From: Escherichia coli | Lineage (GTDB): Bacteria > Pseudomonadota > Gammaproteobacteria > Enterobacterales > Enterobacteriaceae | Strand: one strand, 5' to 3' | NCBI RefSeq assembly: GCF_045037415.1 | Contig: NZ_CP173438.1 | DNA length: 64,000 nt | Shown here: in pieces, positions 3,214 through 58,569 of the stretch | How positions within the stretch are numbered: position 1 is the first letter of the stretch | Layout: every line of letters starts with the position of its first letter | Made by a program: the position numbers and the translations under genes | Notes under the pieces: model-generated | The model's database searches: none | What the model was told of the DNA's origin: nothing | The model's input: only the letters and a program-made list of their open reading frames with translations

Positions 3214-3655
3214 GGTAGGCGCAGCAAACGTCGCATCAGGCATTGATGTCGGATGCGGCGTAAACGCCTTATCCGACCTACAAAAATCACGCCAAATCAG
3301 GCTATTGCGCTGTCTGACGTAGGCCTGATAAGACACGTCAGCATCGCATCAGACATTGATGCCGGATGCGGCGTAAACGCCTTATCCGACCTACAAAAAT
3401 CACGCCAAATCAGGCTATTGCGCTGTCTGGCGTAGGCCTGATAAGACGCGGCAAGCGTCGCATCAGGCGTTGATGTCGGATGCGGCGTAAACGCCTTATC
3501 CGACCTACAAAAATCACGCCAAATCAGGCTATTGCGCTGTCTGGCGTAGGCCTGATAAGACGCGTTAAGCGTCGCATCAGGCGTTGATGTCGGATGCGGC
3601 GTAAACGCCTTATCCGACCTACAAAAATCACGCTACATCAGGCTATTACTCAGTC
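3214..3655. repeat. Tandem array of four ~114-bp REP/BIME-type palindromic units
   Basis: Unit beginning gtaggcctgataagacgcg..cgcatcaggc..gatgtcggatgcggcgtaaacgccttatccgacctac recurs at 3319, 3432 and 3546 with few substitutions, after a partial first copy. Confidence 0.85.
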
Positions 3656-26167: not shown

Positions 26168-28990
26168 ATGGATAAGATCGAAGTTCGGGGCGCCCGCACC
26201 CATAATCTCAAAAACATCAACCTCGTTATCCCCCGCGACAAGCTCATTGTCGTGACCGGGCTTTCGGGTTCTGGCAAATCCTCGCTCGCTTTCGACACCT
26301 TATATGCCGAAGGGCAGCGCCGTTACGTTGAATCCCTTTCCGCCTACGCGCGGCAGTTTCTGTCACTGATGGAGAAGCCGGACGTCGACCATATTGAGGG
26401 GCTTTCTCCTGCCATCTCAATTGAGCAGAAATCGACGTCTCATAACCCGCGCTCTACGGTGGGGACAATCACCGAAATCCACGACTATTTGCGTCTGCTG
26501 TACGCTCGCGTTGGTGAGCCGCGCTGCCCGGACCACGATGTACCGCTGGCGGCGCAAACCGTCAGTCAGATGGTGGATAACGTGTTGTCCCAGCCGGACG
26601 GCAAGCGTCTGATGCTGCTCGCGCCAATCATTAAAGAGCGCAAAGGCGAACACACCAAAACGCTGGAGAACCTGGCAAGCCAGGGTTACATCCGTGCTCG
26701 TATTGATGGCGAAGTCTGCGATCTTTCCGATCCGCCGAAACTGGAACTGCAAAAGAAACATACCATTGAAGTGGTGGTTGATCGCTTCAAAGTGCGTGAC
26801 GATCTTACCCAACGTCTTGCCGAGTCGTTTGAAACCGCGCTGGAGCTTTCCGGTGGTACCGCGGTAGTGGCGGATATGGACGACCCGAAAGCGGAAGAGC
26901 TGCTGTTCTCCGCCAACTTTGCCTGCCCGATTTGCGGTTACAGTATGCGCGAGCTGGAACCTCGCCTGTTTTCATTTAACAACCCGGCGGGAGCCTGCCC
27001 GACCTGTGACGGACTTGGCGTACAGCAATATTTCGATCCTGACCGCGTGATCCAGAATCCGGAATTATCGCTGGCTGGCGGTGCGATCCGTGGCTGGGAT
27101 CGCCGCAACTTCTATTATTTCCAGATGCTGAAATCGCTGGCAGATCACTATAAGTTCGACGTCGAAGCGCCGTGGGGCAGCCTGAGCGCGAACGTGCATA
27201 AAGTGGTGTTGTACGGTTCTGGCAAAGAAAATATTGAATTCAAATACATGAACGATCGTGGCGATACCTCCATTCGTCGTCATCCGTTCGAAGGCGTGCT
27301 GCACAATATGGAGCGCCGTTATAAAGAGACGGAATCCAGCGCGGTACGTGAAGAATTAGCCAAGTTTATCAGCAATCGTCCGTGCGCCAGCTGCGAAGGA
27401 ACCCGTCTGCGTCGGGAAGCACGCCACGTGTATGTCGAGAATACGCCGCTGCCCGCCATCTCCGACATGAGCATCGGTCATGCGATGGAATTCTTCAACA
27501 ATCTCAAACTCGCAGGTCAGCGGGCGAAGATTGCAGAAAAAATCCTTAAAGAGATCGGCGATCGTCTGAAATTCCTCGTTAACGTCGGCCTGAATTACCT
27601 GACACTTTCCCGCTCAGCAGAGACACTTTCCGGCGGTGAAGCCCAGCGTATTCGTCTGGCGAGCCAGATTGGTGCAGGCCTGGTTGGCGTGATGTACGTG
27701 CTGGATGAGCCGTCTATCGGCCTGCACCAGCGCGATAACGAGCGCCTGCTGGGTACGCTTATCCATCTGCGCGATCTCGGTAATACCGTGATTGTGGTGG
27801 AGCACGACGAAGACGCGATTCGCGCCGCTGATCATGTGATCGATATCGGTCCGGGTGCGGGTGTTCACGGCGGTGAAGTCGTCGCGGAAGGTCCGCTGGA
27901 AGCAATAATGGCGGTGCCTGAGTCGTTGACCGGGCAGTACATGAGCGGTAAACGCAAGATTGAGGTGCCGAAGAAACGCGTTCCGGCAAATCCGGAAAAA
28001 GTGCTGAAACTGACGGGCGCACGCGGCAACAACCTGAAAGACGTGACGCTGACGCTGCCGGTGGGTCTGTTTACCTGCATTACCGGAGTTTCAGGTTCCG
28101 GTAAATCAACGCTGATTAACGACACACTGTTCCCAATTGCCCAACGCCAGTTGAATGGTGCGACCATCGCCGAACCAGCACCGTATCGCGATATTCAGGG
28201 GCTGGAGCATTTCGATAAAGTGATCGATATCGACCAAAGCCCAATTGGTCGTACTCCGCGTTCTAACCCGGCGACCTATACCGGCGTGTTTACGCCTGTG
28301 CGCGAACTGTTTGCGGGCGTACCGGAATCCCGTGCGCGTGGTTATACGCCAGGACGTTTCAGCTTTAACGTTCGCGGCGGACGCTGCGAAGCCTGTCAGG
28401 GCGACGGCGTGATCAAAGTGGAGATGCACTTCCTGCCGGACATTTACGTACCGTGCGACCAGTGCAAAGGCAAACGCTATAACCGTGAAACGCTGGAGAT
28501 TAAGTACAAAGGCAAAACCATCCACGAAGTGCTGGATATGACCATCGAAGAGGCGCGTGAGTTCTTTGATGCGGTGCCAGCTCTGGCACGTAAGCTGCAA
28601 ACATTGATGGACGTTGGTCTGACGTATATTCGTCTGGGTCAGTCCGCAACCACACTTTCTGGTGGTGAAGCCCAGCGCGTGAAGCTGGCGCGTGAGCTGT
28701 CAAAACGCGGCACCGGGCAGACGCTGTATATTCTCGACGAGCCGACCACCGGTCTGCACTTCGCCGATATTCAGCAACTGCTCGACGTACTGCATAAACT
28801 GCGCGATCAGGGCAATACCATTGTGGTAATTGAGCACAATCTCGACGTGATCAAAACCGCTGACTGGATTGTCGACCTGGGACCAGAAGGCGGCAGTGGG
28901 GGCGGCGAAATCCTCGTCTCCGGTACGCCAGAAACCGTCGCAGAGTGCGAAGCTTCGCATACGGCGCGCTTCCTCAAGCCGATGCTGTAA
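26168..28990 (+). CDS. uvrA: Excinuclease ABC subunit A
   Basis: 940-aa [42 protein letters not shown] with two ABC ATPase modules. Confidence 0.97.
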
Positions 28991-30721: not shown

Positions 30722-30901
30722 TTATCTGCGGATTTGTCACATAAAAAGAGCATGATCACATTTGGAATACCTGTGCGATAAACCACACATTGCCACGGTT
30801 ATTCTGCTTACACATTCACACAATGGCACTCTTTTGGTTCTCGCAAACATTGTTCAGGGAATATACTGATGATAAATATAAATGCATTCAATGGATGATG
30901 A

Positions 30902-32722
30902 ATGAAAATATCGTGGAATTATATATTTAAGAACAAATGGCGATTTCACATTACAAGCATTTCACTTTTTCTTATCATGCTCGCGGTTTCAATCGCTTTT
31001 TTGCACTTGCGTTTTAATACCTTGTCCGGTACCGATAAAATGCGGCTTGAAATGTATAAGTCCACATTATATTCCACCATCGAGCAATTTTATGTTTTAC
31101 CCTATATGCTCTCAACAGACCATATCATCCGTCAGGCGGTAATTACGCCTGACGATATGACGTCCAGCGAACTCAATCAACGAATTGCACATTTCAATAC
31201 TCAACTCAAAACCGCAGCAATATTTATTCTGGATACCCAAGGTAAGGCCATCGCTTCTAGTAACTGGCAGGACCCCGGCAGCTATGTAGGGCAAAATTAT
31301 AGCTATCGCCCCTATTATAAACACGCCATGTCTGGCTTAAATGGACGCTTTTACGGTATTGGTAGCACTACGAATACACCGGGATTCTTCCTCTCTACAA
31401 GTATAAAAGATAAAGGAAAAATTGTCGGTGTTGTAGTAGTAAAAATAAGTCTTAATGAAATTGAAAAAGCATGGGCCGAAGGTCCTGAAAATATTATCGT
31501 GAATGATGAACATGGGATTATATTTTTAAGTTCAAAATCGCCATGGCGAATGCGAACACTGCAACCGTTACCTGTTCAGGCAAAACAAAAACTACAATCT
31601 ACCCGCCAATATAGTCTCGACAATCTTTTACCGGCGGATTATTATCCCTGTTATACCGTGAGCAATTTTACTTTCCTGAAAGATAAAAAAGAACAACTCT
31701 GTTTATTCCCGCAATATTATACGCAACAAATAGCCATTCCAGAATTTAACTGGAAAATGACAATTATGGTCCCCTTAGATAACCTGTACTGGTCATGGGC
31801 TATTTCGTTAGTCATTACACTAATTATTTACCTGCTGTTTTTGTTATTTATTAAATACTGGAGAATGCGATCTCATGCACAACAATTATTAACACTGGCG
31901 AATGAAACATTAGAAAAACAGGTTAAAGAGCGTACATCTGCCCTGGAATTGATCAATCAAAAATTAATACAGGAGATAAAAGAGCGCAGTCAGGCTGAAC
32001 AAGTATTACAAATTACGCGTAGTGAACTGGCAGAGTCCAGCAAACTGGCGGCGCTTGGACAGATGGCAACCGAAATTGCCCATGAACAAAATCAACCGTT
32101 AGCCGCCATTCACGCACTTACTGATAACGCGCGTACTATGCTAAAAAAAGAGATGTATCCACAGGTTGAACAGAATCTGAAACACATTATTTCCGTGATT
32201 GAGCGGATGACGCAGCTCATTTCCGAACTTAAAGCATTTGCCTCGCGCCATCGCGTACCTAAAGGTTCTGCCGATGTCATCAAAGTGATGTATAGCGCCG
32301 TGGCGTTACTTAATCACAGCATGGAGAAAAATAACATTGAGCGACGAATAAAAGCCCCATCCATGCCGTTATTTGTCAATTGCGATGAACTCGGTCTTGA
32401 ACAGATATTCAGTAATTTAATTAGCAACGCCTTAGATTCTATGGAAGGTAGCTCTTACAAACGACTGGATATCGCCATTCGCCAGGCAAATAACAAAGTT
32501 ATTATTACCATTAAAGACAGCGGTGGCGGTTTTGCACCTGAAGTTGTCGATCGCATATTTGAACCATTTTTTACCACTAAACGTAGAGGAATGGGGTTGG
32601 GACTGGCAATAGTCAGCGAAATTGTCCGAAATTCGAACGGCGCACTCCACGCCAGTAATCATCCTGAAGGCGGCGCAGTAATGACATTAACCTGGCCTGA
32701 ATGGGGAGAAAAACATGAATAA
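30902..32722 (+). CDS. kguS: Sensor histidine kinase, likely KguS of the alpha-ketoglutarate island
   Basis: 606-aa ORF with N-terminal TM, periplasmic domain, second TM, and HisKA/HATPase region (ATEIAHEQNQPLAAI H-box, DSGGGF, GMGLGLA). Confidence 0.7.
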   Translation: MKISWNYIFKNKWRFHITSISLFLIMLAVSIAFLHLRFNTLSGTDKMRLEMYKSTLYSTIEQFYVLPYMLSTDHIIRQAVITPDDMTSSELNQRIAHFNTQLKTAAIFILDTQGKAIASSNWQDPGSYVGQNYSYRPYYKHAMSGLNGRFYGIGSTTNTPGFFLSTSIKDKGKIVGVVVVKISLNEIEKAWAEGPENIIVNDEHGIIFLSSKSPWRMRTLQPLPVQAKQKLQSTRQYSLDNLLPADYYPCYTVSNFTFLKDKKEQLCLFPQYYTQQIAIPEFNWKMTIMVPLDNLYWSWAISLVITLIIYLLFLLFIKYWRMRSHAQQLLTLANETLEKQVKERTSALELINQKLIQEIKERSQAEQVLQITRSELAESSKLAALGQMATEIAHEQNQPLAAIHALTDNARTMLKKEMYPQVEQNLKHIISVIERMTQLISELKAFASRHRVPKGSADVIKVMYSAVALLNHSMEKNNIERRIKAPSMPLFVNCDELGLEQIFSNLISNALDSMEGSSYKRLDIAIRQANNKVIITIKDSGGGFAPEVVDRIFEPFFTTKRRGMGLGLAIVSEIVRNSNGALHASNHPEGGAVMTLTWPEWGEKHE

Positions 32723-34073
32723 TAAATTCAGTGAAATTACTATAGTTTATATTGAGGATAGTGACGATGTACGTTTTGCCTGTGAACAAACGCTCACGCT
32801 GGCTGGTTATCGCGTTATTTCCTGTTGCGATGCAGAACACAGTATTCCCCTTATTCAAAGTCAGGCCAACATTATTATACTGACCGATGTCAGGTTACCT
32901 GGAATATCAGGACTAGAGCTCCTCAGTTACATCAACGAAATGGATAGCAAAATTCCGGTTATTTTAATTACCGGACACGGTGACGTGGAAATGGCGGTGG
33001 ATGCCATGCGTAATGGTGCATTCGATTTCATTGAGAAACCAAGTAGCTCAGATAAATTATTGAGTATTATTGCCAGAGCGGTAGAAAAACGGCGATTGGT
33101 TTTAGAAAATCAGCAATTACTGGCGAATCTGCAACAGGAAAATGGCCCGGTGCTGATTGGTCGTAGTCCGCAGATGCAGCAACTGCGTAAAATGATCCTT
33201 AATGTCGCAGATACCGGTGCCGATGTCCTTATTTATGGTGAAACAGGTTGTGGTAAAGAAGTCGTCGCCAGAATGCTGCATCACTGGAGTACCCGCCGTC
33301 AGGGGCAGTTTGTTGCCTTAAACTGTGCAGGCTTACCAGAAACGTTGTTTGAAAGCGAAATATTTGGTCATGAGGCGGGCGCATTTACCGGTGCGGTTAA
33401 AAAGCGTATTGGAAAAATTGAACATGCAAATGGTGGTACGTTATTTCTCGATGAAATAGAGGGAATGCCATCAGGAATGCAGGTAAAACTGCTACGTGTA
33501 TTGCAGGAAAGAACCATTGAACGATTAGGTGCCAATCAATTAATTCCGGTGAATTGCCGTGTTATTGCAGCGACCAAGGAAGATTTACTGCGTCGCAGCG
33601 AAGAACATCTGTTTCGTCTCGATCTCTATTATCGTCTGAATGTGGTTAGCCTGAATATTCCACCTCTACGCCAGCGACGAGAAGATATCCCTGAACTGTT
33701 TTACTGGTTCGCCAGTCAGGCGGCACAAAAATATAATCGTCCTCTGCCTGATATTTCTCCCATGTTACTGGCCTGGTTGCAGTCACAAAGTTGGCCTGGC
33801 AATGTACGTGAACTTAAACACAATGCAGAGCGTTTTGTTCTCGGTTTACTGACCCACCACCAGCCAGTGCCAATGACTCAGCAAGAAGAGAGTGGTCTTA
33901 CCGCCTGCATTGATGCTTTCGAGAAAAAGTTAATCGAAGATATGCTGCGACAAACGGAAGGCCAGGTCAGTTTGACAGCGCGGCTATTACAGCTGCCGCG
34001 CAAGACTTTATATGACAAACTCAACAAACATCAGATTCAACCGCAAGTTTATCGACCAGAATCATCCAGCTAA
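32715..34073 (+). CDS. kguR: Sigma-54-dependent response regulator (NtrC family), likely KguR
   Basis: Receiver domain, AAA+ sigma-54 activation domain (GETGCGKE Walker A, GAFTGA motif in EAGAFTGAVKK), C-terminal HTH; 8-bp overlap with kinase gene. Confidence 0.8.
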   Translation: MNNKFSEITIVYIEDSDDVRFACEQTLTLAGYRVISCCDAEHSIPLIQSQANIIILTDVRLPGISGLELLSYINEMDSKIPVILITGHGDVEMAVDAMRNGAFDFIEKPSSSDKLLSIIARAVEKRRLVLENQQLLANLQQENGPVLIGRSPQMQQLRKMILNVADTGADVLIYGETGCGKEVVARMLHHWSTRRQGQFVALNCAGLPETLFESEIFGHEAGAFTGAVKKRIGKIEHANGGTLFLDEIEGMPSGMQVKLLRVLQERTIERLGANQLIPVNCRVIAATKEDLLRRSEEHLFRLDLYYRLNVVSLNIPPLRQRREDIPELFYWFASQAAQKYNRPLPDISPMLLAWLQSQSWPGNVRELKHNAERFVLGLLTHHQPVPMTQQEESGLTACIDAFEKKLIEDMLRQTEGQVSLTARLLQLPRKTLYDKLNKHQIQPQVYRPESSS

Positions 34074-36686: not shown

Positions 36687-36702
36687 TGCAGGAGCTATGC
36701 CA
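36687..36702 (-). promoter_or_regulatory. Candidate sigma-54 (-24/-12) promoter for the transporter/Ldh_2 unit
   Basis: Minus strand reads TGGCAT-AGCTC-CTGCA (GG-N10-GC spacing) ~40 bp upstream of the permease start. Confidence 0.45.
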
Positions 36703-36815
36703 TCTTTAATTTTTTAATAATGCTTTGTTATTTAATGATTTTATTATTTATTCTTTTTATTTTGTGCGCGGTTTTCCGCACAGTAAATAAAAGGTGATTC
36801 TCTTACCACACAGAT

Positions 36816-40363: not shown

Positions 40364-41518
40364 TTAAAGATCCAGCAACAGTTGTTCCGGTGATTCCAGT
40401 AGCTCACGTATTGCCACCAATGTATGCACGGCTTCCTGACCATCGATAATGCGATGGTCATAGCTGAGAGCAAGGTACATCATGGGACGAATAACAACCT
40501 GACCGTTTTCTGCGACCGGGCGCGGCGTGATGGCATGCATCCCAAGAATGGCCGACTGCGGCGGGTTAATGATTGGCGTTGACATCATCGAACCAAAAGT
40601 ACCGCCGTTGGTGATAGAGAACGTGCCGCCCTGTAACGCCTCCAGCGGCAATTTGCCATTGCGTGCCTGTGTGGCGTATTCGGCAATTTGCCGTTCAATT
40701 TCCACCAAAGAGAGTGATTGCGCATTGCGTAACACAGGCACTACCAGGCCGCGGTTGCTGCTCACTGCAATGCCGATATCGCAATAATCACGCCAGATAA
40801 TCTCGTTGCCATCGACGCTGGCATTCACTACAGGGAAGCGCTCCAGCGCCCGGGTAACGGCCTTAACAAAGAAGGACATAAAGCCCAGCTTCACGCCGTG
40901 CTTCTCGGCAAAACGATCTTTCCAGCGGGCGCGTAAGTCCATCACGCTCTGCATGTTTACTTCGTTGAATGTGGTAAGAATGGCGTTATTTTGTTGGGAA
41001 GCCAGCAGACGCTCAGCAATTCGCTGACGTAAGCGCGACATCGGCTCACGACGTTCCTGACGAGCACCCGGTGTCAAGGGTTTAGCTGGCGCGATCTCCG
41101 CCACCCGTTCAGGCTGAATGGCTGGTGCAGGAGTAACGCGCTGCACATCCTCTTTCAGGATACGTCCATTTCTCCCGCTCCCCGCAACGTCAGCAAGTTC
41201 GACACCACTACGCTGTGCCTCCAGCCGTGCGGAAGGCATCGCCAGGGTTTCGGTGACTGGTGTGACGGTTTCTTCTATGACAGCTTGCGGCTTAAGATGC
41301 GCCAACAGTTGCGCGGACGTGACCGTGCTACCTTCGCTGACGATAATATTGCTTAACACGCCATCGTGCGGGGCCGGTATTTCCAGAATGACTTTATCGG
41401 TTTCCAGCTCGGCAATCACATCATCGCGTTTTACGTGCTCGCCTTCTTGTTTACACCAGGTTGTCAGCGTGCCTTCCGTGACAGATTCCGGTAATACAGG
41501 GACAGTAATTTCGATCAT
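40364..41518 (-). CDS. Dihydrolipoamide succinyltransferase (E2) paralogue
   Basis: 384-aa ORF with N-terminal lipoyl domain (ETDKV lipoyl-lysine motif) and C-terminal catalytic motif DHRIIDG. Confidence 0.88.
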
Positions 41519-41550: not shown

Positions 41551-44295
41551 TCATGGCTGAATATCTGCAAACGCAGCAGCAAGAAATTCGTCGATTTGTT
41601 GTTTATGTACACGCCCATACCCTGTCGCTGGTGCTGCCGCTGCCGGGCGGCCTGCATACTGCCAGTAAGGAGTGTTAATTTTCAGTGCCGCCAGCTCATG
41701 ACGAATCTGCCGCCACGCGCCCTGGTTTTCTGGCTCTTCCTGCAACCAAATCCATTCGCAGCAGTTCGGCCAACTCGCCAGAACATCATTCAGTTCTGCG
41801 ACCGGGAACGGGTAGAGTTGCTCCAGGCGAACAATCGCTACCTCGTCTTCATGCTCACGCTGCTTACGGGCTTCCAGTACGTCGTAATAGACCTGGCCGC
41901 TACACAAAATAACGCGCTTAACTTTCTGGGACTGATGCAATTGCGGATCGGTGATTACCGGTTTATAAGCGTCATCAGTGAATTCACAAAGCTCGCTCAT
42001 CGCGCCTTTAAACCGAAGTAAACGCTTACTCATCATTATCACTAACGGTTTGCGCATTGGGCGTAATGCCTGACCGCGCAACAAATGGAACATTTGTGCT
42101 GACTCACTGGGCATCACCACCTGCATGTTGTTTTCTGCGCACAGTTGCAGCCAGCGCTCAGGACGTGCGGAAGAGTGCTCCGGCCCTTGTCCGTCATAGC
42201 CATGCGGCAGAAGAATGGTTAAACCGCTATAGCGATCCCACTTGGTTTCGCCAGACGAGATAAATTGGTCAATAGCAACCTGAGCGCCGTTGGCAAAGTC
42301 ACCAAACTGTGCTTCCCAAATAACCAGTTGCTGAGGCGCAGACGTTGAATAGCCATATTCAAAGGCTAAGAGCGCTTCTTCATTAAGCACCGAATCATAA
42401 ACATCGAAAGATGCCTGACCAGCGCGGATATGCTGTAACGGCAGATAACGACGGGCTTCCGTTTGATGATGTACCACTGCATGGCGATGACTGAACGTGC
42501 CACGCCCTGAGTCTTCACCAGAAAGACGCACACCAACACCCGCATCCACAAGCGATGCATAGGCCAGCATTTCAGCCATTCCCCAGTCTACTGGCTGAGT
42601 ACCTGCGGCCATATCCTGGCGTAACGCCAGTTGCCGTTTAATGGTAGGATGTGCGACCACATCGGGTGGCAGTGTAGAAATGATTTCACCATACGCTGCC
42701 AGCTTTTGCCGAGGCAATGCCGTAGATACCGGGGCGCTCCAGTGAGGGTTGGTCAACCCATACCAGTTAGCGCTAAAAGAGTGAATTGCAGGTTTGAGAG
42801 GCTGCGGTTCACGTTTCTGGCAGCTATCCAGCCAGTCGCGATAGCGTGCCGTCATCTCATCTTGTTGCGCCTGAGTTAACAGGCCGCGGCGGGCAAGAGA
42901 TTCACCATAACGGGCGAGCGTACCAGGGTGAGCATCCACTGCCTGATACATTTGTGGCTGGGTAAGACGTGGCTCATCGCTTTCGTTGTGTCCGTGCTTA
43001 CGGAAGCAGCAAATATCGATGATGATGTCACGCCGGAAGGTGTCTCGCCATTCGCACGCCAGTTCCATTACCTGGCAAACAGCGTCAACGTCATCGCCAT
43101 TAACGTGGATAATTGGGGCCGCTACCATTTTGGCAATATCGGTGCAGTACCGTGAAGAACGCATATCCTGCAAGCGGGAAGTGGTGAAGCCAATCTGATT
43201 GTTAATCACCAGATGTAGCGTACCGCCAGTGCCGTAGCCCTGAGTCTGCGATAAGTTAAACGTGGTTTGGTTGACGCCGAGGCCGCCCAACGCGGAATCC
43301 CCATGAATAAGTACGCCCACCACTTTTGCCTGACCATCCTCACCACGGCGTTCCTGCCTGGCTCGCACCTGGCCCAGCACCACCGGATTCACGATCTCCA
43401 GATGTGAGGGGTTATACGCCAGCGCCACATGCAGCGAACCGGCAGGTGTTTCCAGATTGCTGGAATACCCCATGTGGTATTTCACATCGCCTGAACCACT
43501 GCCGATCGTCTGCTTGCCTTCAAACTCAGCAAAAAGCTGTGCCGGGTCTTTATTCAACAGATTAACCAGAACATTAAGTCTTCCCCGGTGCGCCATGCCA
43601 ATGACCATTTCCTCCACACCTTGCGCACGCAGGCGTTTTGTCAGCGTATCGAGCGCCGGGATTGCACTTTCGCCCCCTTCCAGAGAAAACCGTTTCTGCC
43701 CAACATAACGGGTATGCAGATAACGCTCTAACGTCTCTGCCGCCATCAGTTTTTCAAAACGAGCAATACAGGTTTGGGCATCAGCTTGTGGCGCATTGCT
43801 GCTCTCAATCCGTGATAACAACCAGTTGATTTCTTCACGATTTTCCAGATGAGCAAGTTCATAAGCCTGGCTACTGGCCCAGGCTTGCTCCAGCAGGTTA
43901 AGCAGTTGCTTAAGTGGCATTTGCGTGGTGTGTGCGCCAAAGGTGACGCTAAACTCCTGCAACAAGTCTTCTTCGCTTAATCCCCAAAAACCAGGCTGGA
44001 GGGAGGGAACGTCAGCCGGGGGATTCAAACCAAGTGGATCAAGCTTTGCGCGCAGATGCCCCTGCGTGCGCCAGGCATTGATCAGTTGTATTACCGCAGC
44101 CTGTTTTTTTAAGGTCGCACCGCTGATATTGTTATCACCGGATACGCTTTGGACAGTCAGTTCAGGTGAAAGAAAAAAACGCCGCCAGTCTTCCGGGAGT
44201 TGTTCCGGCGTACGCAACCAGGTCTGGTAGTACTCTTCAAGCCAGGTCGCGTTATCTCCACTAAGCAGCGTGCCGGGCGAGGTCATGTTCTCCAT
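41551..44295 (-). CDS. 2-Oxoglutarate dehydrogenase E1 component paralogue
   Basis: Long ORF with E1o/TPP-binding similarity; start placed at ATG 44295 (MENMTSPG, SD AGGAG 6 nt upstream) rather than the ORF-track start 44418. Confidence 0.85.
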   Translation of the reverse strand: MENMTSPGTLLSGDNATWLEEYYQTWLRTPEQLPEDWRRFFLSPELTVQSVSGDNNISGATLKKQAAVIQLINAWRTQGHLRAKLDPLGLNPPADVPSLQPGFWGLSEEDLLQEFSVTFGAHTTQMPLKQLLNLLEQAWASSQAYELAHLENREEINWLLSRIESSNAPQADAQTCIARFEKLMAAETLERYLHTRYVGQKRFSLEGGESAIPALDTLTKRLRAQGVEEMVIGMAHRGRLNVLVNLLNKDPAQLFAEFEGKQTIGSGSGDVKYHMGYSSNLETPAGSLHVALAYNPSHLEIVNPVVLGQVRARQERRGEDGQAKVVGVLIHGDSALGGLGVNQTTFNLSQTQGYGTGGTLHLVINNQIGFTTSRLQDMRSSRYCTDIAKMVAAPIIHVNGDDVDAVCQVMELACEWRDTFRRDIIIDICCFRKHGHNESDEPRLTQPQMYQAVDAHPGTLARYGESLARRGLLTQAQQDEMTARYRDWLDSCQKREPQPLKPAIHSFSANWYGLTNPHWSAPVSTALPRQKLAAYGEIISTLPPDVVAHPTIKRQLALRQDMAAGTQPVDWGMAEMLAYASLVDAGVGVRLSGEDSGRGTFSHRHAVVHHQTEARRYLPLQHIRAGQASFDVYDSVLNEEALLAFEYGYSTSAPQQLVIWEAQFGDFANGAQVAIDQFISSGETKWDRYSGLTILLPHGYDGQGPEHSSARPERWLQLCAENNMQVVMPSESAQMFHLLRGQALRPMRKPLVIMMSKRLLRFKGAMSELCEFTDDAYKPVITDPQLHQSQKVKRVILCSGQVYYDVLEARKQREHEDEVAIVRLEQLYPFPVAELNDVLASWPNCCEWIWLQEEPENQGAWRQIRHELAALKINTPYWQYAGRPAAAAPATGYGRVHKQQIDEFLAAAFADIQP

Positions 44296-44330
44296 GTTTT
44301 TCTCCTGATGGTCATAGACAGCTGCATTAC

Positions 44331-44346
44331 TGCACAATCCGTACCA
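44331..44346 (-). promoter_or_regulatory. Candidate sigma-54 (-24/-12) promoter for the 2-oxoglutarate dehydrogenase / succinyl-CoA synthetase operon
   Basis: Minus strand reads TGGTAC-GGATT-GTGCA with GG-N10-GC spacing, ~36 bp upstream of the proposed E1 start. Confidence 0.45.
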
Positions 44347-44476
44347 ACAGTTAAAAACACTAATTTTCAAAAACTTATAGAAAAGAGATGATGTAAAAGT
44401 GGGCGAAAAAAGGGACAAAATAGTAGGGAGTGGCTGGAGTCAGGAACAGGCGGAGAGATCCGCCTGTTGATTAAAA

Positions 44477-45670
44477 TCACATCACCGCAGCAAACGCCTT
44501 TGCCACGCGATGCACATTTTGCGTGTTAAGCCCGGCGACACACATGCGACCGCTGGCGATGAGATAGACACCAAATTCTTCACGTAGTTGGTCAACCTGA
44601 GCGGCACTTAAACCGGTATAACTGAACATGCCGCGCTGATTAAGCAGATAATCGAAATTGCGTTCTGGCATCTCTGTGCTCAATACCTTCACCAGTTCCT
44701 GACGCATTGCCAGAATGCGAGTTCGCATCTCTTCTACTTCCACCAGCCAGCTGGCTTTCAATGCCTCGTCATTCAGCACCGCAGCCACCACCTGCGCACC
44801 AAAATTCGGCGGGCTGGAGTAGTTGCGGCGAACAGTTGCTTTCAATTGCCCCAGTACGCGGCCTGCGGCTTCGGCATCTTCACACAGAACAGAAAGTCCG
44901 CCGACGCGCTCGCCGTAAAGGGAGAAAATTTTCGAGAACGAATTGCTCACCAGAGCGGGTAATCCAGCGCTGGCAATGGCGCGAATGGCGTAGGCATCCT
45001 CTTCCATACCGGCACCAAATCCTTGATAGGCAATATCAAGAAATGGGATAAGCTCACGGGCTTTGAGAATTTCAATCACCGCATCCCACTGCTCATTAGT
45101 GAGATCGGCACCCGTTGGGTTGTGGCAACATGGATGCAGCAACACAATACTGCGGGCAGGTAATGTTTTCAGCGTCGCCAACAGGTCATTAAAGCGCACG
45201 CCGTTAGTCGCTTCGTCATACCAGGGGTAAGTACTTACTTCGAATCCAGCCCCGGCGAATATTGCTACGTGGTTTTCCCAGGTAGGATCGCTGACCCAGA
45301 CGCTTGATTCCGGGAAGTAGCGTTTCAGGAAATCTGCGCCCACTTTCAATGCCCCTGAGCCGCCAAGGGTTTGAATGGTTGCTACGCGCTGTTGTTGCAG
45401 TACCGGATGGTCCGCACCAAACAGCAGCGGCGCAATGGCATGGCGATAGCTGTTAAGCCCTTCCATCGGTAAATAAAGCGAAGCACCATGAGGCTGCGCA
45501 TTCAGGCGCGCTTCCGCATCCGCCACGGCTTTCAGTTGTGGAATAATTCCGTCTTCGTTGTAGTACAGACCGATACTTAAATTCACTTTGTCGCTGCGAG
45601 GGTCTTCTTTAAAACGCTCCATAAGCGTAAGAATCGGGTCGCCAGCGTAGGCGTCAACTTTTTGAAACAC
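44477..45670 (-). CDS. tyrB: Aromatic-amino-acid aminotransferase
   Basis: 397-aa protein from GTG at 45670 ([36 protein letters not shown]). Confidence 0.95.
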
Positions 45671-58471: not shown

Positions 58472-58487
58472 TACAAGAATCATGCCA
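58472..58487 (-). promoter_or_regulatory. Sigma-54 promoter of pspG
   Basis: Minus strand reads TGGCAT-GATTC-TTGTA, the same -24/-12 architecture as the pspA promoter, ~36 bp upstream of the pspG start. Confidence 0.55.
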
Positions 58488-58569
58488 AAAATAATCTATT
58501 GATTTAACAGCAAAACGCCCCGCGACGGTGCGCAGGGCGTGGTGAATTTGACTACTTTTTGGTGAAAAG

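Follow-up and report, generated by a model that had tools for sequence, protein, structure and literature searches.

The 17 bp at positions 44347-44331 of the minus strand very probably form the -24/-12 element of a predicted sigma-54 promoter driving c5032-c5037, the operon whose products are the E1, E2 and E3 components of a 2-oxoglutarate dehydrogenase and a succinyl-CoA synthetase. All positions refer to the 64,000 nucleotides of Escherichia coli DNA that were analysed as a whole, hereafter the window. The element is present as the sole sigma-54-like site of its region, and it is conserved together with the sequence blocks upstream of it in lineages that have diverged considerably from E. 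coli.

The operon belongs to the tyrB-aphA island of ExPEC E. coli, c5032-c5041 of strain CFT073, which includes KguS/KguR (PMC3694859). RefSeq gives the gene order as tyrB, E1, E2, lpdA, sucC, sucD, a DASS transporter and an Ldh-family gene, after which a sigma-54-dependent regulator and a sensor kinase follow in convergent orientation to the preceding island genes, and then aphA. tyrB and E1 share their orientation and lie 181 bp apart. Many E. coli chromosomes are identical in this region, and the island-specific 151 nt around the motif were found in 1045 of 5426 complete E. coli genomes, about one in five. Three genes matter most for what follows:

41551-44295, minus strand: 2-oxoglutarate dehydrogenase E1 gene, the c5032 orthologue, with its ATG at 44295 (RefSeq, N-termini of orthologues)
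32715-34073, plus strand: kguR, an NtrC-family enhancer-binding response regulator with GAFTGA (RefSeq; motif confirmed)
30902-32722, plus strand: kguS, sensor kinase (RefSeq; PMC3694859)

[quoted passage not shown] In the same study a c5032-lacZ fusion was silent without alpha-KG and its activity was abolished in a kguR mutant, MBP-KguR shifted a c5032 fragment reaching from -272 to +32, promoters were predicted using the sigma-70 tool BProm, and TGTGTG-N13-CGCGCA was proposed as the KguR site of c5032. A 2021 study reported a mean log2 change of about -8 for c5032-c5037 in a kguR mutant and an approximately 2.2-fold decrease for tyrB, and listed the KguR motif on the c5032 side as lying inside the aminotransferase coding sequence (PMC8716947). 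For c5038 the 5'-RACE start, a -24/-12 motif, rpoN dependence and a sigma-54 gel shift are available, all of them for c5038 only (Cai et al., 2017; PMC5318444). The literature that we searched contained no -24/-12 element, transcript start or rpoN data for c5032. The sequence-only reading from which we started had pointed to a GAFTGA sigma-54 activation motif in an adjacent regulator. KguR does carry GAFTGA, but the gene is not adjacent: it lies roughly 10 kb away at the far end of the island.

We examined the proposed motif alongside two sigma-54 promoters of the window that served as positive controls:

44331-44347, minus strand: candidate sigma-54 -24/-12 promoter element, TTGGTACGGATTGTGCA (sequence, matrix score and conserved core)
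36687-36703, minus strand: published sigma-54 promoter of c5038, ATGGCATAGCTCCTGCA, 15.24 bits (PMC5318444), internal positive control
58472-58488, minus strand: confirmed sigma-54 promoter of pspG, TTGGCATGATTCTTGTA, held-out positive control

The minus strand around the candidate reads ...aactgTTGGTACGGATTGTGCAgtaatgcagctgtctatgaccatcAGGAGAaaaacATGgagaac..., and positions 44346-44331 spell TGGTAC-GGATT-GTGCA. GG at 44345-44344 and GC at 44333-44332 stand at the canonical GG-N10-GC spacing, so that the motif and its -24/-12 spacing could be read directly from the DNA as first described. Searching the whole window for TGGCAC-N5-TTGCA with at most two mismatches returned 28 matches against 30.5 expected, that is, no enrichment. 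As a plain consensus search cannot discriminate, we turned to a matrix for which 41 intergenic ChIP-seq sites of sigma-54 in E. coli K-12 were taken (PMC4591121, Table 1), with the pspG promoter omitted because it lies inside the window. At 17.3 bits, this held-out promoter had the highest score of all window positions. The matrix scan, put forward initially as a check, gave the candidate 12.93 bits and rank 13 of 128,000 window positions. This falls within the range of bound sites (8.8-21.6 bits, lower quartile 14.65) and at its low end, since the candidate exceeds only three of the 41 training sites and lies below the other 38. The mismatches that weaken the E. coli element are T for C after GG and G for T/C before TGC.

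The surroundings are more telling than the score. Within the 305-bp fragment bound by KguR no other site exceeds 1.3 bits, the next best reaching 1.25 bits, and when 181-nt regions of the same dinucleotide make-up were drawn at random, 0.44% of the trials gave such a site (P = 0.0044). The candidate is intergenic and points in the sense direction, and its centre lies about 44 nt from the ATG, within the 18-100 nt or more seen for bound sites (PMC4591121, Table 1). An Rfam search of the intergenic region matched no RNA family.

To follow the element beyond E. coli we compared the window with CFT073, E. albertii, strain 14EC007, Citrobacter sp. R56, L082, L084, L085 and Pectobacterium zantedeschiae. 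True orthologues of the island E1 are rare. A genome scan recovered three among 80 loci, with 94% identity in E. albertii, 77% in Citrobacter sp. R56 and 57% in P. zantedeschiae, the remaining matches being housekeeping SucA at 39-45% identity. A protein search with the 300-aa N-terminus of E1 returned mostly fragments and housekeeping SucA, and yielded three useful further lineages, all of them metagenome assemblies; CFT073 and two divergent E. coli strains were checked as well. The orthologous 17-mers are:

TTGGTACGGATTGTGCA: window, CFT073 and L085
TTGGTATGGATTGTGCA: E. albertii
TTGGTATGGATTATGCA: strain 14EC007
TTGGTACGAATACTGCA: Citrobacter
TTGGTATGGATACTGCA: L082
TTGGTATGAATGCTGCA: L084
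TTGGCACATTCCCTGCT: Pectobacterium

Scores of the orthologous elements range from 12.2 to 16.8 bits (E. albertii, Citrobacter sp. R56, two metagenomic enterobacterial lineages and P. zantedeschiae). Seven diverged lineages all have the core TTGG.A-N7-TGC without change, the GG-N10-GC spacing is kept in all orthologues, and the positions that vary are those of low information in the matrix (Spearman -0.65, p = 0.004). In every multi-kb locus the element is among the top three sense-strand matches and is the only such match upstream of E1. The seven-lineage alignment is free of indels over the stretch that begins some 120 bp before the predicted start and ends at the -12 element, even though many bases differ, and four blocks are conserved within this stretch: the two KguR-like boxes A and B described below, an IHF-like box and the -24/-12 element. 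In Pectobacterium the same ten-gene island follows glnALG-yshB, not tyrB, and the promoter and upstream blocks are kept. As the island occupies a different chromosomal site there, the footprint is independent of shared flanking DNA. Thus, while the bare consensus match is not above chance, the motif taken together with its conservation is clearly more than a chance occurrence.

The position of the element relative to the gene depends on where E1 begins:

44301-44306, minus strand: Shine-Dalgarno sequence AGGAGA, 5 nt before the ATG, GGAGA being invariant in all orthologues
44318-44323, minus strand: predicted transcript start with +1 at 44320 (analogy with the mapped c5038 start)

The start at 44295, preceded by a Shine-Dalgarno sequence, had been preferred to a longer reading frame, and several observations agree with it. 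RefSeq annotation of identical sequence begins E1 exactly at the equivalent position; the N-termini are co-linear in all orthologues (MENMTSPG..., MESMTSPG..., MPTRTPLSGEN...); the GGAGA and ATG columns of the alignment are invariant; and in-frame stop codons lie upstream of the ATG, three codons away in Pectobacterium and 24 codons away in L084. The longer frame from TTG 44418 is a mechanical artefact that would run through the promoter and box B. An out-of-frame ATG at 44315 was also considered as a leader ORF and dismissed, as it has no Shine-Dalgarno sequence and Citrobacter does not share it. The motif ends, on its 3' side, 35-36 nt upstream of ATG 44295. The distance of about 25 nt that had been given for the motif is therefore too short by some ten nucleotides (35 nt); it is the predicted transcript start that is about 25 nt from the ATG. 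The mapped +1 of c5038, an A 30 nt before ATG 36646, is found 12 nt downstream of the C in the -12 GC according to our check of the coordinates, and the same rule puts the c5032 start at 44320 ± 3. By this analogy, transcription is predicted to begin near 44320 with a leader of about 25 nt.

Several features upstream of the element are candidates for a part in its activation by KguR, and we compared them to the known c5038 enhancer:

44400-44417, minus strand: proximal KguR-like box B, TGTCCCTTTTTTCGCCCA, centred near -88 (KguR matrix and conserved block)
44431-44448, minus strand: distal KguR-like box A, TGTTCCTGACTCCAGCCA, centred near -119, 31 bp from box B
44365-44377, plus strand: IHF-like box, TTTCAAAAACTTA, centred near -51, matching 12 of the 13 positions of WATCAANNNNTTR
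44520-44544, minus strand: published putative KguR site for c5032, TGTGTG-N13-CRCGCA, inside the tyrB coding sequence (PMC3694859; PMC8716947)
44446-44467, minus strand: G+C-rich hairpin just after the tyrB stop codon (-18.1 kcal/mol, z = -4.0), its 3' arm overlapping box A
36765-36812, minus strand: c5038 enhancer, comprising the validated KguR site TGTGCGGAAAACCGCGCA (36782-36765) and a distal TGTGTG box (36812-36795) 30 bp upstream of it (PMC8716947)

The validated KguR sites of c5038 and kguS, the latter being TGTGCGATAAACCACACA at 30772-30789 on the plus strand, align when read as 7-4-7, which removes the published discrepancy between N8 and N6 spacing and gives an 18-bp box type, TGTGYGR-N4-YCRCRCA. 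A KguR matrix was trained only on these validated c5038/kguS sites. When it was applied to the c5032 upstream region of six lineages, its best match fell on box B or box A in five (5.4-8.5 bits). Box B is the top upstream match in E. coli, at a weak 6.7 bits, and box A is the top match in L082. Both boxes have the outer TGT...CA, the 18-bp length, the tandem spacing of 30-31 bp and one good half-site, and in all six lineages tested box A lies 95 bp and box B 64 bp from GG. Their scores are 3-8 bits against 17-20 for c5038, and at least 6 bits occurs about once per 700 positions. As scores this low are common by chance, we hold the assignment of boxes A and B as putative KguR sites of the c5032 promoter as a reasoned inference that is about as likely to be right as wrong. 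The IHF-like position is occupied by a perfect consensus in Citrobacter (AATCAATACATTA) and Pectobacterium (TATCAATAGCTTA), and IHF may act at 44365-44377; one-mismatch IHF-like sites are common in AT-rich DNA and number 84 in the window.

The published site inside tyrB fares differently. In the window it reads TGTGTG-N13-CACGCA, already deviating from CGCGCA, and scores 3.4 bits with the KguR matrix. E. albertii, 14EC007 and Citrobacter have lost the second half of the motif, and Pectobacterium has no counterpart of it. It is thus unlikely, judging from these comparisons, that this motif is a functional enhancer of c5032, and the published site has probably been mis-assigned. The published gel-shift probe held the tyrB-internal motif as well as boxes A and B and hence cannot tell them apart. 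The hairpin at 44446-44467 has no U-run and was not called as an intrinsic terminator in the scan of 44200-44700.

How else might the operon be expressed? A sigma-70 promoter in the same intergenic region, activated by KguR in a conventional manner and with the GG/GC motif being incidental, would fit the BProm prediction (PMC3694859) and the weak -24/-12 match of E. coli. However, a crude consensus scan of the sense strand of 44200-44700 revealed no -35/-10 pair of the sigma-70 type, rpoN dependence is known for the sister promoter c5038 (PMC5318444), and the GG/TGC core is invariant over a large divergence. We consider a sigma-70 promoter highly improbable for one more reason. To our knowledge, AAA+ enhancer-binding proteins with GAFTGA, the class of activator that KguR represents, act only on the sigma-54 holoenzyme. 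Nor does it seem credible, at a similarly slight probability, that the motif is a chance or non-productive sigma-54 site and that the real KguR-dependent promoter lies elsewhere, for instance inside or next to tyrB. Many bound sigma-54 sites of E. coli are not productive promoters (PMC4591121) and around 30 two-mismatch matches are expected per window, but the bound fragment holds no other site above 1.3 bits, the candidate has the position and orientation of real promoters with its centre some 44 nt from the ATG, and it is conserved in Pectobacterium, where nothing of tyrB lies upstream. Read-through from tyrB as the main source of c5032-c5037 transcripts is the least probable of these possibilities and can almost be dismissed. 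The genes have the same orientation, 181 bp apart, the hairpin between them without U-run was not called a terminator, and tyrB itself is about 2.2-fold lower in the kguR mutant; yet with a mean log2 change near -8 for c5032-c5037 against a roughly 2-fold change for tyrB (PMC8716947), read-through cannot explain the change. Moreover, the same promoter block stands behind a different upstream gene in Pectobacterium, and c5032-lacZ is silent without alpha-KG (PMC3694859).

The alternative that deserves most attention leaves the -24/-12 element functional and moves the activator: KguR may act from the tyrB-internal site at 44544-44520, or from solution, rather than from boxes A and B. The published TGTGTG-N13-CGCGCA does lie within the shifted fragment (PMC3694859), the 3' end of tyrB differs from K-12 and may therefore have moved together with the island, and the KguR matrix gives boxes A and B low scores. 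Against this, the spacing is N13 compared to N6 in both validated sites, the motif deviates already in the window (CACGCA), its 3.4 bits compare with 6.7 for box B, E. albertii, 14EC007 and Citrobacter do not retain its second half, and the site is absent in Pectobacterium, while boxes A and B keep their exact distances to the promoter in all lineages. We regard action from the tyrB site or from solution as possible though doubtful. The sigma-54 promoter that the sequence-only reading had expected upstream of the operon is, in contrast, well supported by an activator of the KguR class with GAFTGA, by a sole site in the bound fragment and by the conserved core, and it also fits the rpoN-dependent sister promoter c5038 and the absence of a sigma-70-like pair.

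Taken together, we favor the following model for the sigma-54 promoter of c5032. Sigma-54 RNA polymerase would sit on the -24/-12 element as a closed complex. KguS would sense alpha-ketoglutarate under low oxygen and phosphorylate KguR, and KguR~P would assemble on an enhancer some 90-120 bp upstream, most likely the boxes at 44417-44400 and 44448-44431. A bend at the IHF-like box 44377-44365 would bring KguR to the polymerase, where ATP would be used to open the promoter, and transcription would start near 44320 to give a leader of approximately 25 nt with the Shine-Dalgarno sequence AGGAGA ahead of ATG 44295. Induction by alpha-KG, the dependence on KguR and the binding of KguR to the -272 to +32 fragment have been demonstrated (PMC3694859), whereas rpoN dependence of c5032, its exact start, the boxes contacted by KguR and the role of IHF are what we infer.

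By every feature that could be tested, the c5032 promoter belongs to the enhancer-dependent sigma-54 class, with Pc5038, the promoter of the alpha-KG transporter operon c5038-c5039, as its nearest relative. Both respond to the same activator, KguR, and the same inducer, both have two 18-bp TGT...CA boxes 30-31 bp apart upstream and an AT-rich or IHF-like stretch between the boxes and -24, and both have a short leader, which for c5032 is predicted. The layout of c5038 is alike in E. coli, L082 and Pectobacterium: a TGTGCGG-N4-CCGCGCA site 73 bp from GG, a second box, TGTGTG, 30-31 bp further upstream (103 bp from GG), and AT-rich DNA following. The 3' end of GG-N10-GC is 41 nt from the ATG in Pc5038 and 35-36 nt in c5032, and the Pc5038 enhancer lies 9 bp further from GG than the c5032 boxes. 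The two promoters differ in strength, with 15.2 bits for the -24/-12 element of Pc5038 against 12.9 for c5032, and a near-perfect palindrome of 20 bits as KguR site against 6.7 bits for box B. They differ as well in how they are known, Pc5038 from its mapped start, rpoN-mutant data and a sigma-54 gel shift and the c5032 promoter from sequence features and from KguR dependence and binding.

As annotation the finding is sound and of use, though it is expected and ordinary, and it refines a known system rather than introducing a new principle. What appears mildly new, on sequence grounds, is the probable mis-assignment of the published KguR site and the finding that the c5032 elements are much weaker than those of c5038. 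Strong c5038 elements and weak c5032 elements, combined with phased boxes and an IHF bend, would if true amount to a threshold hierarchy. One may speculate that the two promoters are tuned differently, with uptake responding already to low KguR~P and the dehydrogenase needing high KguR~P, that the tyrB-internal site is non-functional and that the presumed direct control of tyrB by KguR is a by-product of mis-assignment; we put this joint reading forward only tentatively and think it rather less likely than not to hold as a whole.

In the urinary tract, the KguS/KguR island contributes to how well uropathogenic E. coli competes in terms of fitness. The promoter of the main catabolic operon of the island has so far been described only via a sigma-70 prediction tool and a doubtful activator site in the neighbouring gene. 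Mutagenesis now has exact targets in the placed -24/-12 element, the boxes likely to act as enhancer and the predicted start. If the assignment is true, c5032-c5037 joins the RpoN regulon of ExPEC, which would account for the poor growth of the rpoN mutant on alpha-ketoglutarate beyond the transporter defect.

The glnAp2 promoter of enteric bacteria and the dctA promoter of Rhizobium have tandem activator sites about three helical turns apart, roughly 100-140 bp upstream. Such classical NtrC/DctD-type promoters combine a phosphorylated NtrC-family regulator with GAFTGA, IHF or an intrinsic bend in between, and a -24/-12 element. The c5032 promoter appears, from its sequence, to have this classical layout. 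Unlike in glnAp2 and dctA, the signal of KguS/KguR is alpha-ketoglutarate and low oxygen, the box sequence and the regulated function are different, and the target is a second, anaerobically expressed 2-oxoglutarate dehydrogenase with succinyl-CoA synthetase. In Pseudomonas aeruginosa, MifR and RpoN control the alpha-KG transporter PA5530 (cited in PMC5318444). As far as that description goes, the case resembles c5032 in that sigma-54 and an enhancer-binding protein govern alpha-ketoglutarate utilisation, and differs in that a transporter instead of a dehydrogenase operon is controlled, at an unrelated locus and in an unrelated organism. The pspG promoter, which has a perfect IHF consensus immediately upstream (58492-58504), differs from c5032 by its activator PspF, its place in the core genome and its stronger match.

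The window holds further sigma-54-like sites. A strong one, CTGGCGTGATTATTGCG (40780-40796, minus strand, 16.5 bits), lies in sense orientation inside the E2 (odhB-like) gene, where the codons read ..I W R D Y C D... The site persists in E. albertii, L082 and L084 (14.5-16.5 bits) and is degraded in Pectobacterium, which has TGT for TGC; it could be an intragenic sigma-54 site as described by Bonocora et al. or reflect codon constraint. Another, CTGGCACGTAAGCTGCA (28583-28599, plus strand, 16.9 bits), is in sense orientation within uvrA. As kguS is autoregulated by KguR, a sigma-54 promoter was expected upstream of it. The best site there, the degenerate motif ATGGCACTCTTTTGGTT (30823-30839, plus strand), has GG for GC at -12, reaches only 7.1 bits and is not conserved in L090. 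A tandem array at 3220-3647 consists of 3.8 copies of a 114-bp unit of REP/BIME-like palindromes, which each carry TTGGCGTGATTTTTGTA (15.3 bits; 3279, 3392, 3506) beside an IHF-like box. These matches have most likely arisen by chance within a repetitive extragenic element.

Several minor observations concern the island itself. When the tyrB junctions of K-12 (L089, 60-200) and the island strains were compared by eye (44477-44530), the divergence was found to set in precisely at the stop codon of tyrB, with differences already present in the final ~15 codons of this gene (..TQNVHR.. in island strains, ..TANVQR.. in K-12). Either the junction of the island or a tract of recombination thus extends into the 3' end of tyrB. 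In island strains the hairpin that follows this gene likewise differs from that of K-12. A predicted 439-aa protein from a 1.5-kb assembly (P0004) joins the C-terminal part of an enhancer-binding protein (AAA lid and HTH_8) to the N-terminal domain of E1 at 100% identity, which is probably an artefact of assembly or rearrangement. Signs of island decay were seen in several genomes: the metagenomic contig L085 (1634 nt) has the E1 N-terminus fused to the C-terminal ATPase domain of the kinase, with the response regulator behind it on the same strand; in L082/L090 E1 is internally deleted and kguS split; E1 is frameshifted in L084 and strain 14EC007; and lpdA is frameshifted in strain SK1144 (L001). 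The promoter motif is kept in all of them.
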